Positions 1-24,774 of a stretch of DNA of 24,774 nt are shown piece after piece. This stretch comes from a virus (lineage: Duplodnaviria > Heunggongvirae > Uroviricota > Caudoviricetes). The notes beneath the pieces were generated by a model. The model was given only the letters and a program-made list of their open reading frames with translations. It did not search any database and was not told where the DNA came from. A program made the position numbers and the translations under genes. The DNA is taken from IMG/VR virus record IMGVR_UViG_2778261448_000010, positions 1-24,774 of that record. The stretch is one strand, 5' to 3'. How positions within the stretch are numbered: position 1 is the stretch's first letter; every line of letters starts with the position of its first letter.

Positions 1-90
1 TCACTCTGCCAGATGGCGCAATGCCATCTGGTATCACTTAAAGGTATTAAAAACAACTTTTTGTCTTTTTACCTTCCCGTTTCGCTCAAG
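1..90. other. Bacterial chromosomal flank (B' side of the lambda attachment site)
   Basis: The sequence adjoining the core (reverse complement CTTGAGCGAAACGGGAAGGTAAAAAGACAA...) matches my recollection of the E. coli attB B' arm. No phage-like ORF is present; the minus-strand frame ending at 1-3 is only 8 codons. Confidence 0.6.
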
Positions 91-105
91 TTAGTATAAA
101 AAAGC
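91..105. other. attR: attR core (lambda-type common core, reverse complement GCTTTTTTATACTAA)
   Basis: The exact 15-bp lambda att common core is present as its reverse complement, with a lambda P-arm-like sequence on one side and attB-like sequence on the other (P-O-B' on the minus strand). Confidence 0.75.
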
Positions 106-250
106 TGAACCAGAAACAGAAAAAATCATTAATCTCAATCCATTACAATACATTTGGCTTAAAAAATAGACTGTATAATACTGCAAAACACAACATATCC
201 AGTCACTATGAATCAACTACTTAGATAGTATTAGTGACCTGTAACAGAGC
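106..250. other. attP P-arm remnant with Int arm-type/IHF/Xis binding region
   Basis: The reverse complement reads ...TCTGTTACAGGTCACTAATAC...CAGTCACTAT...GTTCAGC up to the core, closely resembling the lambda P arm including CAGTCACTAT-type arm sites. It is AT-rich. Confidence 0.65.
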
Positions 251-251
251 A

Positions 252-292
252 TTAGCGCAAGGTGATTTTTTGTCTTCTTGCGCTAATTTTTT
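252..292 (+). terminator. sib: sib/tI-like hairpin plus T-tract (lambda int retroregulator/terminator)
   Basis: Plus strand TTAGCGCAA-ggtgattttttgtcttc-TTGCGCTAA followed by TTTTTT. This is a perfect 9-bp inverted repeat with a U-tract, matching the lambda sib/tI sequence as I recall it, on the strand an int transcript would use. Confidence 0.7.
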
Positions 293-426
293 GTCATCAA
301 ACCTGTCGCACTCCAGAGAAGCACAAAGCCTTGCAATCCAGTGCAAAGCTTTGTGTGTCTCAGTTTTGTCTCATCAACTATAATATATTAATGGCATATG
401 ATTGATTATTAGAGAGTTACATTAAC

Positions 427-2559
427 TCACTTAAAAGGAGTGTTTATCCTAACAACTCTCAAATAAACATCTCTTATATTTTCACCTCCATTTGGCCTTA
501 AAACTGTTGCTGAAATAACTCCACTTTGTGAAGCAGATACTGTTGCGTTATATACTAATGAACTATTGAATTGTTGAGCGTGTATTTGCCTTGATGTTGT
601 TTCAATTTGCTCTCCGGCTCTCATCATAACTGCATGTTCTGAAAAACACCCGCCAGCACCAGTTGTTGTTGTCGCTGTAACCTCAACTCTATAGAAATAC
701 ATAGCAAGCGTACCTGAGTTTACTGAATTATTTGGAACTGGCACTTGTACGGTTATTGAGACTGGGCCGCTATCAACTCCTGTTGCCTGAGCACACCAGC
801 CAATTTCACCATTCTGAGATATTAATGTGAATATGCATCGATCTTTTGTCCCAGCGTTTACCTGATACGTTGTTGTATAGGTGGCACCATAGAAATGCTC
901 TACGGTTATGGCAGTACCGAAGTTCTCTCCCCAACCAGTCCATGAAGGCCAGATACTGGCATTGCTTTTAATGGCTACGCCATTATTGATGCACTTCAGA
1001 GACACTTTCCCATTATTACAAGAACTCAAGAGCACAGGGACTCCAGGAATGCTGTTCCTTAGTGTTATCTCAACATCCGGCTGCTCTGCGGTTACCAACA
1101 TTAGTGGCTCGACTGTTCTTGGAACCGTATTGAGCGGTATGTTAATCTCCATGTCGCGCACTCGCGTCCTTGTACCGCCACATAGAAATGCGCATACACC
1201 ACCTACATTAGCAGGAAGATAAAGTCGAACACCTTCAAAAGACAAATCAAAAACATCCGATTGAGAATTTGTGATGATTTGAATAAGGTGTATAGGGCCG
1301 TTAACGTTTTCTCCCGTAAAATTACTCTTACTGGTGATGTTTCTGTAAATACCACCTGTTCCTGATACTTTTGCCGCAAACACTGGTGTGTCCGTCATGG
1401 TGCAAACTAAACCATCAACAACACACCCTGTTGACCCCGTGAGTTGTAAAGTTACATTGCAGCCGCCGTATCTGTTAGATAGAAGATTTCCGAACTCACC
1501 ACAGTTTGTTATAGAACCACTAGTGTTATTGATATACATCAGGTGTGACGGACCATACGCACCGAAACTTTCGTCATGCCGCAATGTCCCATACACGTAC
1601 TCAATATTGCATCCTGCAAAGTTGTTAATAAGTGCGCATGAATAGTGTGTACAATAGATGTTAGAGAAGAGAGAGCCTCTAAAATCACCCTCATAACCAG
1701 AAACAAGGAAGTCGTAGCGATTATCGCTGGTTTCACCGACTGCCATCGCATTAATCAATTTGAAACGATACGCGTTTGAATTCATCCCGATAAAGCCACA
1801 GAACGCAGCTTCCCACGGGCGAGTAATTCCATAGCGAGTGGTTGTTGTGCCCCCCAAAGGATAGCCGCCTTTATAGACAGCATTAAATCCCATAATGGTC
1901 ACATCAGGATTCCTGTTCATGAAGACCAGAAATCCAGTTTTCTCATGAGTTATTTTAGCACCGTTAAAATCAATATATGCACCAGCGGGAGGAGTGATGA
2001 CATTTTCCTCATTCATCACCATACGATATGTGGAACCTCTCTTCATGAGGCATCTTCCAGTCATAATAGCATTAGTCACCGCCACTGTATCATCAGCTAC
2101 ACCATCTCCAATTGCTCCATATTGCTCTGGCGTTGCCCAATATGACAAACTATCCGCTACTGTACCAGCCAAGTATCCAATTTTAGTTGCACCATCTTCT
2201 TCAGACAGTTCACTTCGAAATTGATCAGGGTCGTACTTCAGCACATTCGGAAAATAGAACTGCTGCACACCGTACGCATCATAAACAGCCATAGAATGGC
2301 CTTGCACAGTTACGAACTTGGCAATCTGTCCGTTATATACAGGGTAACCAGCAGCGTTAATGATGATTGGTTGCGAAACAGGAACGTGAGAGCCGTCTTC
2401 GTTTTCCACATAAACCTGAATCTGGTTTTCAGGATGTACAGGGTCAGTGTCAATTTTTCCGATATAAATTTTGCCATTGGCTACGGCTTTAAAAGATCGC
2501 GCCATAGTGAAGAGTTGCGAAGGCATCGATACGATCACATTGGCTGTAATGTCTGTCAT
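427..2559 (-). CDS. Tailspike protein (P22 gp9-like head-binding domain, HK620-like length)
   Basis: The 710-aa ORF starts [13 protein letters not shown]...[19 protein letters not shown]...[12 protein letters not shown]...NVLKYDPDQ, matching the conserved N-terminal head-binding domain of P22 tailspike. The remainder differs from P22 gp9. 710 aa is the length I recall for the HK620 tailspike. RBS GGAG lies upstream of the ATG. Confidence 0.9.
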
Positions 2560-2615
2560 TTAATTTGCTCCAGATACAAGGAATCGCCGCAGCGTAGCTA
2601 CGGTGAATTTTGGGC

Positions 2616-2642
2616 ATAAAAAAACCCAGCCGAAGCTGGGTC
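2616..2642 (-). terminator. Rho-independent terminator between antirepressor-like gene and tailspike
   Basis: Perfect hairpin CCCAGC-cgaa-GCTGGG (2625-2640), followed on the minus strand by a 7-U tract (plus-strand AAAAAAA at 2618-2624). Confidence 0.7.
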
Positions 2643-2659
2643 GTTGCGTTGGTTATCTG

Positions 2660-3590
2660 TCAGTAGTTATGTACTGAAGGAGGCAATTCTTTATTCTTAA
2701 GTCTCATCCATGCGGAAAGATTCGTTGGTCCGTCTGGCTCATTAATATCAACATCTCGTGTGTGGTTTATTAAAACGTCTCTCGCCATTCCGATAACATA
2801 CGAGAATTCATGACCGTAGTCGTAGCATCTGCCGGAATAGTTCGATTGAATTTGTTTTAGCGCCGGATACAGTTCGCGGAATAATGCCTGTGAGCGGTTG
2901 GCATAATCCCATAACCATACAAGGCTGTTTGCTTCTTTTGCAGAAAGCTCGTTGGTTTTCTTCTCTTGTTTGCCAATGAACTCACCTTCAAGTGGAACTC
3001 GAGCTGCAAGTGACAGTGCTTCGGTAAACTGCTCCTCACTGATTTCTTTGTACGAACATCCAAAATGGGATTTCAGTGACGACCACATGGTGATCATCGC
3101 CTTAGCCTGTTTTTCTTTTGGCAGAGACTGACCGCGACTCATGACGAGTTGTTTAATGGCTTCCTGCTGTTCAGTGGTGATTTTACCCGGCAACGCCTTT
3201 TTAGCTTTGCGTGGGTTAACTACATGGCCTTTAGTCCAGTACTCATAGAGCACATCGTCACACTCTTCCTGATACTGGATTACATTGTCGCGGATTTCAG
3301 GACGGACTTTGTTAGGGCTGATGGTTTGCAGCCAACCTGCAAGTTTGCGAAGTGCCAAACAAATAATCTCACGGCACTGTTCATCACCAGGAAGCTGCAT
3401 TGTGATTTTCACAATGGAGGTTTTAAACCGTTGCTTTATTTTCGTAAACTGTGAAGCCCAATCCATACCCATGCCTATCAACGATAGGTTTCATTGGGGT
3501 GTACGGTTCACCGTTGTGATTGACGACATAAAGCTCTGCGCCGTGGAATGGCACGTTGATAGTAGATACTGCCGTTGCTATACTTTTCAT
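2660..3590 (-). pseudogene. Antirepressor-like gene (P22 Ant N-terminal domain family) disrupted by a 1-bp frameshift
   Basis: A 55-codon ORF from ATG 3588-3590 ([38 protein letters not shown]...) ends at stop 3423-3425. The 273-aa track ORF (2660-3481, TTG start) continues the same domain in another frame ([14 protein letters not shown]...LPGDEQ...RKLAGWL...[12 protein letters not shown]...[15 protein letters not shown]). Removing the minus-strand A at about 3476 would fuse them into ...[16 protein letters not shown]... Confidence 0.6.
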
Positions 3591-3709: not shown

Positions 3710-4141
3710 TTAATCTTGCTTCGTGGAAGGTATAAGAGATGCATTTGCCTCTTTTGGCTTCAATGTATACATCCCACCATTAAATGGATCAACAGCAAGC
3801 CAACCGATTAACCCACCAAACACAAGGTTTCCACCAATATACCAACCATTAGCATTGGCTTTGATTGGCAGGGTAACTGGTTCGTACCCATCCTTCTCCA
3901 TAGTGATCTGGTAGCTCTTTTTGCCAAAATAACTACCATCTGACTTGGCAAGAGTTACTCCTTGCGGGGTCTTACCTTGCGCAACAATCACGCCTGATTC
4001 GTCTTTTACCTTAAAGCTCGCACCGGAAGGGTTGCTGTTCACTTGCACAAGTTGCGTTTCATCACCAACAATAGTTGCGCACCCAGATAACATCATAGCA
4101 CCAGCAACGACGCCAATAATCCTCTTCATATCAATTTCCAT
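3710..4141 (-). CDS. Predicted outer-membrane lipoprotein with PEGA-like domain (moron; possible superinfection exclusion)
   Basis: The ORF has signal peptide MKRIIGVVAGAMMLSGC with lipobox LSGC, and Ala follows the Cys. The likely true start is the second ATG at 4127-4129. The central segment resembles a PEGA-type beta domain (...GKTPQGVTL...SYQITMEKDGYEPVTLPI) and the C-terminus is Gly-rich (GWYIGGNLVFGGLIGW). It has its own downstream terminator. Confidence 0.75.
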   Translation of the reverse strand: MEIDMKRIIGVVAGAMMLSGCATIVGDETQLVQVNSNPSGASFKVKDESGVIVAQGKTPQGVTLAKSDGSYFGKKSYQITMEKDGYEPVTLPIKANANGWYIGGNLVFGGLIGWLAVDPFNGGMYTLKPKEANASLIPSTKQD

Positions 4142-4246: not shown

Positions 4247-4570
4247 GTGTATACAACAGTTATCGTGATAGCTATCGCACTCATTGTGGTTCAGTACCAA
4301 CTGGCATCTTTAAAACAAAAGATATCTGACCTCAAGACTGAGAACGAAGCACTTAAAAACTCAATAAAAGATGAGAAGAACAAACTATCATTCACTATAT
4401 CTGATATTGAGCAATCCATTGAAATTATTGAGAATAATATTAACAGACTAAAAAAAGAAGATATTCATGAAATCAATGACAATATCAAGGATTTGAAATC
4501 TTGGCTTAGGAATGTAGGACAAATCGCCACATCAACACGAGATAAGCTCAATCCATCCATGGATGATTAA
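4247..4570 (+). CDS. Small bitopic membrane protein with N-terminal TM helix and coiled coil (moron of unknown function)
   Basis: This is the only convincing plus-strand gene. GTG start is preceded by a strong SD TAAGGAGG (4234-4241) with 5-nt spacing. The hydrophobic N-terminus is YTTVIVIAIALIVVQY, followed by a K/E/N-rich heptad-like region. Composition is visibly AT-rich relative to flanking structural genes. Its stop TAA (4568-4570) abuts the gp16 stop (4571-4573). Confidence 0.7.
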   Translation: MYTTVIVIAIALIVVQYQLASLKQKISDLKTENEALKNSIKDEKNKLSFTISDIEQSIEIIENNINRLKKEDIHEINDNIKDLKSWLRNVGQIATSTRDKLNPSMDD

Positions 4571-8804: not shown

Positions 8805-9260
8805 CTATCTCCCGTGATTCAGGAAGTCGATTAGTTCTTCGCGTGTGGCGCTGTAAAACGTCACGTCATCCACGCCTTTAAAGTATTTCTTGATGGTTCC
8901 GACACGCTTAAGGCCAATCATTGCGCAGTAAATCTGCCCGTGGCGGAATTTGCGTGCGGCGAACGATGTGACGCACTGAACGGTGGTGTTAGTCAGAATG
9001 TATTTCCAGAACTCCAGCCCGATTTCCTTGCTGAATCCACGAATCTCTGGCAGGTACATGGCGTGGCAATCGAATGTCAGCGGCTGAATCTCCTGATAGT
9101 AAACAATGCCGCCGAACTGCCCGTGCACGTTCACCTCAAAGTAACGGCATTCAGGTTTGTAGTCGTATCCATCACCGTTGTTGCTCCCGGCAATAATGTC
9201 AGGGTGATTTCCGACTGCTTCTATCAGGTCGATGTTTCGCGTTGGTTTGAACTGAATCAT
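8805..9260 (-). CDS. gp14-like virion/DNA-ejection assembly protein
   Basis: The 151-aa ORF lies between tail needle and gp7, the position of P22 gene 14. Confidence 0.65.
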   Translation of the reverse strand: MIQFKPTRNIDLIEAVGNHPDIIAGSNNGDGYDYKPECRYFEVNVHGQFGGIVYYQEIQPLTFDCHAMYLPEIRGFSKEIGLEFWKYILTNTTVQCVTSFAARKFRHGQIYCAMIGLKRVGTIKKYFKGVDDVTFYSATREELIDFLNHGR

Positions 9261-10108
9261 TACTGCTCCGCGATTATCTTGATGGTTGTGGCAGTAAACG
9301 CCGCAACATTCGACTGAATGGTTAACGTGCTGCCATTTGTGGCAAGAAAGCCGTCTTTATCCACGCTGAAGAACGTAGCTAACAGGATGTTATCGGTTGT
9401 TGTCGCTGCATTACGACTGCTGACCAACGTGTCAGGAACAGAGCCGGAAAAGGTTAGCTGCATTGACCTGTTGGCGGTTCCGCTGGGCCACGTCCCGACG
9501 ATCGACAGCTTGAAGAACAAGGTTTTGTTCTCGTTGAACACAACCATCTTGTTGTTAACAGTGTCGAAGAATGGTGCCAACGAGCCGGATGACGGCGTGA
9601 GCGTTTTCAGCAGGCTAACAAGGTTGGTCGGCGCTGTCGGGATGGTTACAGATACGCCAGAGTAAACAACCTCTGACTTCTTGCGATTAGTGGCATACTC
9701 CAGAGCATCGATGCGCGTTTCATGGTCTGAAAGCGTGTTTTGAATGGCGATAACTTCATCAGTCAGATAATCAATATCGTTTTCTGCTGTCGTTAATCGT
9801 GAATCAAGGCCGACTATCGCCGCTTCTGCGTTAGTGATCCTTGTTTCGTGGTCCTGTATCTTCGCTTCAGCCGATGCCAGTCGAATTTCGTGATCGACCA
9901 GAATCACATCCTGCTCATCGTTCCTGACCTGTGCATCATAAGCGCCCTGTCCGGCCTCGTTGGCTTTGTTAGCCACGTTACCAACATCAGTTCCCTGTGC
10001 GATAACGTAAAGCAGATACGACTGCGAGAAGATATTACGCGGAAGGACTGATGTGTCGAGTCGTGTAGCCTGAATGATTACCGGCACATTAAGATTCGAA
10101 TCAGCCAT
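9260..10108 (-). CDS. Tail needle protein gp26-like with C-terminal knob extension
   Basis: The 282-aa ORF has an N-terminal coiled-coil heptad region ([50 protein letters not shown]) followed by a beta-rich C-terminal domain. It sits between gp10 and gp14. Length fits the Sf6-type knobbed needle rather than the 233-aa P22 needle. Confidence 0.8.
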
Positions 10109-23640: not shown

Positions 23641-23813
23641 TTCCTCGCACGATGTCTTAGCCACCGGATATCCCACAGGTGAGCCGTGTAGTTGAAGGTT
23701 TTTACGTCAGATTCTTTTGGGATTGGCTTGCGTTTATTTCTGGAGCGTTTCGTTGGAAGGTATTTGCAGTTTTCACAGATTATGTCGGTGATACTTCGTC
23801 GCTGTCGTCTCAT
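23637..23813 (-). CDS. Small basic nin-region protein (NinD/NinE-like, CxxC)
   Basis: Likely start at ATG 23811-23813 ([30 protein letters not shown]...), overlapping the methyltransferase stop as ATGA. About 58 aa. Confidence 0.5.
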
Positions 23814-24337
23814 GCTGCCCTCCTGACGCCCTGCCCGATCGCCATCAATGCCGCTTTGGATACGGTAGTAAACATCCGTCGAGGACTGATGAACGGTCGC
23901 CAAATCAGCAGCATGGAACCTTTGCTGTTTCCCTTCTTCTCCAGCCCTGTCGATGGTTCGATAAAATTAATCCGTCCATCAGTGATAATGCGAACTTCGT
24001 CGACACTCTCCAGAGCCTTACTGAACCATCCGACTGACATATCCTCTGGCACAAGCATAACTACCGTCTGTCGCTGTTGTATGCACTGCTCAGCGGCTTT
24101 TTCCACCCACGGCCTGATATTGCTGTACGGTGGGTTATTCCAGATTGCACCGTGGCTTATCCACTCAGAATTTAGCGCGTCGTCGGCCTCAGTTAGCCAG
24201 TGAGCGCACAGAGCATTTTTGTCGCTCGCTGCCGAATCCAGCCAGAACCCAAACTCAATATCCAGTGCATCAAAAAGCCAAAGCGGCGTTTGCCAGCAGT
24301 CCTTATCGTGTGCTGGCGTATTTGATTTGATAGTCAT
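23810..24337 (-). CDS. Phage DNA N6-adenine methyltransferase (Dam-like, NPPY motif)
   Basis: The ORF contains the catalytic motif NPPY ([14 protein letters not shown]) and the N-terminal motif [13 protein letters not shown] typical of phage Dam-family methyltransferases. Likely start at ATG 24335-24337, overlapping the NinB stop as ATGA. Confidence 0.75.
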
Positions 24338-24774
24338 GCAGCCCGATCTCCCCATCTTGCTTTCCACTCCAGAGCCAGTCGCGCTTCGTCTGACCACTTA
24401 ACGCCATGTTCTGTACCGAATGCCTGTATAAGCTCTAATAGCTCCGCAAATTCGCTTACACGCATCCTGCTGGTTGACTGGCCTATTACCACAAAGCCAT
24501 TCCCGGCAAGGTTAGGAACAACGTCCTGCTGCTTTAATGCTGCGGTAAACACGCACTTCCAGCTTTCTGCATCCAGCCAGCGACCATGCCATTCAACCTG
24601 ACGAGAGACGTCACCAAGGCAAGCCCAAAGCTTTCGGTTTTGGTCTAAGCTGCGGTTGCGTTCCTGAATGGTTACTACGATTGGTTTGGTTGGGTCTGGA
24701 AGAATTTGCTGTACCGCGTGAATAGCGTTTTGCTGATGTGCTGGAGATCGAATTTCAAAGGTTAGTTTTTTCAT
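24334..24774 (-). CDS. ninB: NinB (Orf-family recombination mediator)
   Basis: The 146-aa ORF MKKLTFEIRSPAHQQNAIHAVQQILPDPTKPIVVTIQERNRSLDQNRKLWACLGDVS... is near-identical to lambda NinB as I recall it. Its ATG is the last three bases of the window. Confidence 0.9.
   Translation of the reverse strand: MKKLTFEIRSPAHQQNAIHAVQQILPDPTKPIVVTIQERNRSLDQNRKLWACLGDVSRQVEWHGRWLDAESWKCVFTAALKQQDVVPNLAGNGFVVIGQSTSRMRVSEFAELLELIQAFGTEHGVKWSDEARLALEWKARWGDRAA

Follow-up and report, generated by a model that had tools for sequence, protein, structure and literature searches.

A mosaic P22-like prophage tailspike whose receptor-binding domain probably targets the Escherichia coli O168 O-antigen

Which surface glycan does a tailspike recognize when its receptor-binding part resembles none of the familiar ones? 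This question is raised by a gene near one end of a 24,774-nucleotide (nt) stretch of viral DNA (Caudoviricetes; IMG/VR record IMGVR_UViG_2778261448_000010, positions 1 to 24,774; hereafter the window). An original prediction, made from the letters alone, described the gene as a modular tailspike in which a P22-type head-binding domain is fused to a non-P22 receptor-binding domain, and Pfam, PDB, DNA-break and BLASTP evidence all bear this out. The strand was missing from that description: on the plus strand the translation is full of stops, and on the minus strand it is one intact open reading frame (ORF). We consider it likely that the gene encodes the tailspike of a P22-like prophage at lambda attB and that its beta-helix cleaves the O-antigen of E. 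coli serogroup O168, with an endoglycosidase favoured over a lyase.

The N-terminal domain ties the protein to P22-like phages. Pfam family PF09008 (Head_binding) covers residues 1–113 over its full profile (E = 5.8e-66; 220 bits against a cut-off of 24), which places this domain of the window protein in the P22-like (Lederbergvirus) gp9 family. Matches in a PDB sequence search are confined to residues 1–121 and comprise Sf6 gp14 (E = 1.8e-65), full-length chains and N-terminal fragments of P22 gp9 (E = 1e-44 to 1e-51) and, weakly, Pantoea WceF. Amino-acid identity is 74% to P22 (residues 2–114), 91% to Sf6 (residues 1–114), 88% to HK620 (residues 1–130) and 93% to phage N7; the nucleotide identity of the head-binding part to the N7, CUS-3, HK620 and Sf6 genes is 88–96%. 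The resemblance of the first ~115 residues to P22 gp9, and its disappearance afterwards, had both been noticed from the sequence, and both hold. We detected no homology to the P22 gp9 endorhamnosidase domain, as matches to full-length P22 chains end at residue 119, and beyond residue 130 we found no resemblance to P22, Sf6 or HK620, with BLASTP E values of at least 0.97 for every later segment. The head-binding segment itself is widespread, occurring in 1,135 of 5,426 complete E. coli genomes. AlphaFold2 modelled this domain poorly, which is irrelevant because solved homologues exist.

We located the end of this shared region by aligning the 5′ part of the gene with the CUS-3, HK620, N7 and Sf6 tailspike genes. 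Between a point about 120 nt ahead of the start codon and gene nt ~342, identity is 87–100%; it then falls to the random level, with the break after codon F114 (YDPDQF/RSEL, codon 114/115). The allele carried by E. coli 09-00049 displays the same boundary: relative to the window, 28 of 345 nt differ in the head-binding part (91.9% identity) and 16 of 1,788 in the rest (99.1%), a roughly ninefold shift in mismatch density that takes place between nt 327 and nt 351. The boundary, proposed earlier as a likely recombination joint, is a real recombination event, marked by the collapse of identity to all four genes at gene nt 342–350 and independently backed by the switch in the 09-00049 allele. A second joint emerged from comparison with the tailspike gene of another P22-like prophage (P0007; L014 4001–6124), which is 97% identical in nucleotides through nt ~626 and 50% identical after it; only 2 mismatches fall in nt 480–604, and mismatches are dense from nt 627. 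The tailspike gene is thus a mosaic, with one joint exactly where the head-binding domain ends and another near residue 210. The protein accordingly divides into three or more exchangeable parts: the adaptor (residues 1–114), the neck with the first coils (115 to ~209), and the helix body with the C-terminal domain.

The receptor-binding part is rare. For the C-terminal 590 residues, Pfam, PHROGs and PDB sequence and profile searches returned adaptor, neck or sub-threshold motif matches only. Its opening motif gives weak matches to PF12218 and PF12708, both below threshold; a motif of the neck and first-coil region lies at window positions 2086–2133. We found no match that would place the window protein in PF12708 (Pect-lyase_RHGA_epim), and its relatives P0010 (11.3 bits) and P0026 (25.1 bits) stay under the cut-off of 27, the GDGxxDDT first-strand motif alone being in common. 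A family profile searched against PDB sequences reached, apart from adaptors, only the GDG motif and the neck of the Phi92 tailspike gp150. None of 50,697 phage genomes carries the receptor part, tblastn yielding only weak matches to the first ~100 residues, and a scan of 185,579 species, each represented by one genome, revealed no full-length relative of the helix body; that scan matched only GDG-motif proteins and, in Arsenophonus and Yersinia, copies of the head-binding and neck part. Twenty clusters came out of a word-indexed search through 5.8 billion proteins. Exhaustive phmmer over 1.84 billion representatives recovered 11 clusters at E < 1e-30 and 14 at E < 1e-10, and matches beyond those 14 touch the first ~100 residues only. 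IMG/VR holds two near-identical prophage copies, BFVD a single close protein (26% identity, uncharacterised, from a metagenomic phage), and the exact 710-residue window protein is present on 16 public contigs, among them contigs of GCA_002518045.1, SRR3993852, DRR103292, SRR12505100 and SRR3931243. Separately, one genome of Candidatus Arsenophonus triatominarum (L020–L029) has at least nine contigs that each carry a P22-type head-binding and neck copy, 53–72% identical to residues 1–153 and presumably belonging to multiple APSE/P22-like prophages.

Structure prediction gave the receptor part a recognizable shape. Using AlphaFold2 in monomer mode with a 21-sequence family alignment, we obtained a model in which residues 140–710 mostly have predicted local distance difference test (pLDDT) values of 85–97 and form an all-beta chain whose strands repeat as in a beta-helix and which ends in a C-terminal beta domain. 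Residues ~115–710 are predicted with high confidence to comprise a neck, a right-handed parallel beta-helix and the C-terminal beta domain, a fold characteristic of P22-like tailspikes and, at the fold level, of the pectate-lyase superfamily. A right-handed beta-helix was the structure that the original prediction had proposed looking for. The C-terminal domain is the most variable part of the family, and identity to relatives is lowest there. By Foldseek, the best global match is the HK620 tailspike, with template modelling (TM) scores of 0.43–0.56 at 11–12% identity; further structural neighbours are given in Table 1. In a comparison of 15 homologues whose identity goes as low as 20%, the polar residues that never vary are Y282, D283, H305, Y306, R327, Y335, H339, Y342, E355, Q372 and K397. 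They cluster in residues 282–397 (window 1369–1716), where a nearly invariant motif beginning GTLRH is also found, and the S338–H339 pair is invariant or nearly so.

The identity of the target is suggested by the hosts. The whole tailspike gene occurs in three of the 5,426 complete E. coli genomes, and sensitive blastn with the helix body alone found the same three only. All are O168:H8: OkiPb01715 (PMC12613899), GB089 and 09-00049 (PMC8136144 supplement; PMC7175801). The O168 wzy gene is present in eight of the complete genomes, and the three tailspike carriers are among them, an overlap with a chance probability of 2e-9, or of 2e-6 if only two acquisitions were independent. Independence is supported by the location of the prophages, which adjoin torT in 09-00049 and OkiPb01715 and occupy lambda attB in GB089 and the window, by their different head-binding alleles, and by the two distinct immunity regions with which the exact window protein is found; together these indicate acquisition in at least two backgrounds. 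The O-antigen cluster of 09-00049 contains O168-family wzx and wzy, GDP-fucose synthesis genes, four glycosyltransferases and an acyltransferase, so the O168 antigen is probably O-acetylated. The tailspike domain is exclusive to O168 hosts among complete genomes (three of three carriers), in agreement with the earlier suggestion that receptor specificity should indicate the host serotype, and from this association the most likely target is the O168 O-antigen. That the tailspike of a Lederbergvirus prophage is linked to the O-serogroup of its host is an established principle (Pas et al., Virol J 2023, PMC10408124). In the literature searched, we found no link between a tailspike and O168. One genome is of note in its own right: NZ_CP067426.1, labelled 'Escherichia coli O22:H8 strain 154', carries an O168-family wzy at 100% identity (2168713–2169945; hit H101), so that serotype label and O-antigen genotype appear to disagree in this strain.

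How might such a tailspike act? From the structures of P22 and Sf6, the tailspike, the only receptor-binding protein of its phage, would form a homotrimer and dock by its N-terminal 114 residues to the gp4/gp10 tail hub. By analogy with P22, Sf6 and HK620, the beta-helix would bind several O-antigen repeats in a groove and cleave them. Cleavage would let the virion descend to the outer membrane, where the needle and ejection proteins would act. For the chemistry we favour an endoglycosidase with conserved carboxylates, for which D283 and E355 are candidates.

Several points weigh against an O168-cleaving tailspike. Five other genomes with the O168 wzy lack the tailspike gene. All three carriers share O168:H8 and stx2a and so are related, and part of the association with O168 could stem from clonal descent or from a different surface glycan shared within the lineage. 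No sequence-level relative with a known activity turned up in the Pfam, PDB, phage-genome and profile searches. Lastly, a frameshift in the antirepressor gene ant suggests that the window prophage may be partly decayed.

Among the alternatives, the one that survives best keeps both the architecture and the O168 target and changes the chemistry: the helix would be a polysaccharide lyase, acting by beta-elimination at a uronic acid instead of by hydrolysis. With so many His, Tyr, Arg and Lys residues, and with the K5 lyase as top structural match, this mechanism stays a live alternative, possible if rather doubtful. The invariant polar residues are mainly of these four types (Y282, H305, Y306, R327, Y335, H339, Y342 and K397), and only two invariant carboxylates accompany them. 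The gene ugd adjoins the O168 gene cluster, a weak argument because ugd holds that position in E. coli generally. A lyase would call for a 4-substituted uronic acid in the O168 repeat unit. Chemistry is not transferable to the window protein from its structural neighbours: the K5A lyase (PDB 2x3h), CBA120 TSP2, K64-1 S2-4, phi29 gp12 and the 9NA tailspike share 8–15% identity with it, and the PF12708 and PF12218 matches lie below threshold.

A different receptor altogether is unlikely, and less probable than a lyase. The association with O168 would then result from clonality, and the true receptor would be some other surface polysaccharide of the O168:H8 Shiga toxin-producing E. coli (STEC) lineage, such as group 4 capsule, colanic acid or enterobacterial common antigen (ECA). 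The phylogenetic closeness of the complete-genome carriers, all O168:H8 with stx2a, would fit this, as would the five O168-wzy genomes without the gene. Colanic acid is brought to mind by the top-ranking PHROG of the first 185 residues, whose annotation is 'colanic acid degradation', and by the neck, which together with the first coil is related to that of the Phi92 colanidase gp150 (PDB 6e0v; family-profile positions 126–197 against chain residues 18–93, E = 5.7e-13). However, both similarities are limited to the adaptor and neck (residues 1–197), leaving the helix body outside; the Phi92 likeness is confined to the neck, and the helix body is unrelated to gp150 in sequence. The two chromosomal sites and different head-binding alleles argue for repeated acquisition by O168 hosts, and use of the O-antigen is characteristic of P22-like phages that have a single tailspike (PMC10408124).

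Still less probable is a domain that binds its glycan without depolymerising it, or that removes O-acetyl groups instead of cutting the backbone. Pfam and PDB profile searches detected no catalytic motif of a known family, the acyltransferase of the O168 cluster implies a probably O-acetylated antigen, and the S338–H339 pair counts in its favour. The tailspike esterases known so far, however, use SGNH-type domains and not the beta-helix itself. The polar cluster at 282–397, conserved down to 20% identity, suggests an active site, and the structural neighbours are nearly all depolymerases.

An HK620-type tailspike, that is, an endo-N-acetylglucosaminidase specific for the O18A1 antigen, can be dismissed almost outright: in its favour are the equal length, the 88% identical N-terminus and the best global Foldseek scores, and against it are direct BLASTP alignment of residues 1–130 only, which refutes the receptor domain as a homologue, a DNA match that stops at nt 335, 9–12% identity in structural alignment with the HK620 receptor-binding domain (PDB 2vji, 2x85), no HK620 chain in the PDB matched by sequence or profile, and carrier hosts of serogroup O168, not O18. 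The original prediction had been drawn to HK620 by length, and HK620 gp9 is indeed also 710 residues long (2,133 nt); the equality is coincidental. Its HK620 lead was right about overall shape and wrong about homology, the receptor domains having no detectable sequence similarity, and equivalents of the HK620 catalytic residues D339 and E372 could not be established in the window protein.

The receptor module is mobile. Its body is found on P22-type head-binding domains (the window, P0001–3 and P0007–9), on a TSP1/gp66-type N-terminus (P0004, P0006 and P0012), on T7 tail-fibre N-termini (P0005, P0018 and P0019), and on other N-termini within the family. P0002 and P0003 are relatives at 81–82% identity. 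On the TSP1/gp66-type and T7-type adaptors the body retains 76–78% amino-acid identity to the window. P0004, encoded on a siphovirus-like metagenomic contig (L013 1–10169), carries a body 78% identical to that of the window directly after tape-measure and distal tail genes, and is a case of receptor-module transfer between phage morphotypes. Horizontal exchange of receptor-binding domains between phage genera is a known pattern (PMC10408124). More speculatively, and with little probability attached, the helix body (residues ~210–710) might constitute an undescribed depolymerase family of ~11–14 clusters at 50% identity, with no Pfam model and no sequence-detectable solved relative. Its chemistry, built on H305, Y306, R327, Y335, H339 and Y342 with D283 and E355, would be unlike that of two-carboxylate glycosidases, and the cassette, on podovirus, siphovirus and T7-like adaptors, would everywhere target a fucose-containing O168-type antigen.

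By adaptor, genomic position and predicted fold, the protein is a member of the P22-like tailspike family. It has its head-binding domain in common with P22 gp9, Sf6 gp14, HK620 gp9 and the CUS-3 endosialidase tailspike (74–93% amino-acid identity), along with the position of the gene, last after ant and behind the bsq1/tANT boundary sequence, the break point directly after YDPDQF, and the plan of adaptor, neck, beta-helix and C-terminal domain. In contrast, residues 115–710 have no detectable sequence similarity to the P22, Sf6, HK620 or CUS-3 tailspikes. Those four act on the Salmonella O-antigen (P22, an endorhamnosidase), Shigella flexneri (Sf6), O18A1 (HK620) and the K1 capsule (CUS-3), and the proposed O168 target differs from all of them. 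The logic is the same as that of the tailspike subtypes described by Pas et al., in which a conserved anchor of ~124 residues bears exchanged receptor-binding domains and the tailspike predicts the host O-antigen (PMC10408124). Their survey covered O26, O45, O91, O103, O104, O111, O145, O146, O157 and a few others, and O168 is unmentioned (PMC10408124).

As an architecture this holds nothing new, since modular tailspikes with a joint at this place are textbook knowledge for P22-like phages. The novelty lies in the receptor module, which is rare, uncharacterised, tightly associated with O168 and probably O168-specific. Serogroup O168 includes stx2a-positive STEC from cattle, beef and lettuce. 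If the specificity is true, the tailspike would offer a ready module that recognises and cleaves the antigen, of use in detecting O168 or in engineering the host range of phages. It also provides an example of cassette exchange with two mapped joints and three adaptor types, and a candidate family for enzymology: beta-helix depolymerases without a solved or assayed member.

The setting of the gene conforms to its assignment to the P22-like tailspikes. On its minus strand the window carries the late half of a P22-like prophage, ending with the tailspike gene. It encodes a Q antiterminator, holin, Rz, Sf6-type small terminase, large terminase, P22 portal, scaffold and P22 coat, then gp4 (P22_Tail-4), gp10 (Phage_stabilise), a needle with an Sf6-type knob and gp14, and the ejection proteins gp7, gp20 and gp16, followed by two small accessory ORFs, the antirepressor and the tailspike. 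Gene order is identical in the annotated P22-like prophage of E. coli 09-00049. The tailspike gene thus closes a P22-type virion module in which the gp4/gp10 hub is also encoded, and the partners of its head-binding domain are therefore present. Upstream of the gene, the boundary sequence (Table 1) corresponds to 'bsq1; boundary sequence' in the CUS-3 annotation and contains the tANT terminator annotated in HK620; a terminator scan placed a terminator-like hairpin inside it, at 2623–2642 on the minus strand. A promoter scan of window positions 200–2800 found none upstream of the tailspike gene and one weak sigma-70-like match (9/12), intragenic and on the opposite strand. By extension from P22 biology, this result fits transcription of the tailspike by read-through from the late operon across the tANT-like terminator.

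Beyond the 3′ end of the gene lies an attachment site. The attR region is also 91% identical to the attR of phage DN1, and bacterial DNA of the bio side extends from it towards position 1, with bases 1–100 found in 5,421 of the 5,426 E. coli genomes. On public contigs with the identical protein, the next genes beyond attR are ybhB-bioA-bioB, the lambda attB site. The window prophage is P22-like (Lederbergvirus-type) and integrated at lambda attB of the E. coli chromosome. A P22-like prophage here has a lambda-type attachment site, with a lambda P-arm homologue and the lambda core abutting the 3′ flank of the tailspike. As prophages with the same tailspike module adjoin torT in 09-00049 and OkiPb01715, against lambda attB in the window, the integration modules of these prophages differ. 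In the P0007 prophage, the tailspike is followed (L014 6149–8630) by an MBOAT-family acyltransferase and a 339-residue protein without a Pfam match, both on the opposite strand, and this pair may form a module for O-antigen acetylation (seroconversion); the window lacks such genes between tailspike and attR.

Table 1. Mapped features of the tailspike locus and structural neighbours of the predicted receptor part.
Feature	Position in window	Strand	Basis or remark	Value
Complete tailspike gene, 710 codons plus stop at 427–429	427..2559	-	ORF list	
Head-binding (tail-adaptor) domain, codons 1–114	2218..2559	-	PF09008; Sf6 and P22 N-terminal domain matches in PDB	
First recombination joint, gene nt about 343–351, after YDPDQF	2209..2217	-	identity break against four P22-like tailspike genes	
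Neck and first beta-helix coils, residues 115–209	1933..2217	-	97% nt identity to P0007 gene	
Second mosaic joint, gene nt about 605–630, residue about 205–210	1930..1955	-	window against P0007 gene	
Predicted right-handed parallel beta-helix body, residues about 210–560	880..1932	-		
C-terminal all-beta domain, residues about 561–710	430..879	-	model: long antiparallel strands at 600–704	
Conserved upstream boundary sequence between ant and tailspike gene	2560..2679	-	77–100% identity to CUS-3, HK620 and N7, nt -120 to -7	
3′ flank travelling with the tailspike cassette	356..426	-	71 nt past stop codon identical to 09-00049 prophage, divergent beyond	
Lambda-type attR (P arm), core TTAGTATAAAAAAGC at 91–105	87..357	.	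91% identity to lambda attP (J02459 27473–27742)	
Structural neighbour: K5A lyase (top match)				29.8
Structural neighbour: AlgE4				29.3
Structural neighbour: GH87 glucanase				29.0
Structural neighbour: K64-1 S2-4 depolymerase				27.4
Structural neighbour: HK620 tailspike			464 residues aligned	27.2
Structural neighbour: phi29 gp12				27.1
Structural neighbour: CBA120 TSP2				27.0
Structural neighbour: 9NA tailspike				25.3

Other genes of the window bear on the state and gene content of the prophage. The ant gene (window 2660–3590, minus strand) is split by its frameshift, such that residues 1–44 and 39–307 of an intact homologue align in different frames, and in the window's ORF list the interval from gp16 to ant holds no ORF of the Arc or Mnt family. 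P63C, Mnt, Arc and an intact Ant of 307 residues are retained on other contigs whose tailspike is identical; this tailspike therefore occurs with two different immunity-I regions. The gp16–ant interval contains two accessory ORFs. The first (3710–4141, minus strand) encodes 143 residues with a lipoprotein-signal-like N-terminus and matches phrog_6823 (function unknown) and no Pfam family. The second (4247–4570, plus strand) encodes 107 residues with sub-threshold matches to coiled-coil-type Pfam families and belongs with phrog_5962 (function unknown). Both could be moron or superinfection-exclusion genes. The Sf6-type knob domain of the tail needle (window 9260–10108, minus strand) is PF16532, and the prophage also encodes a Dam-type N6-adenine methyltransferase (window 23810–24397, minus strand).

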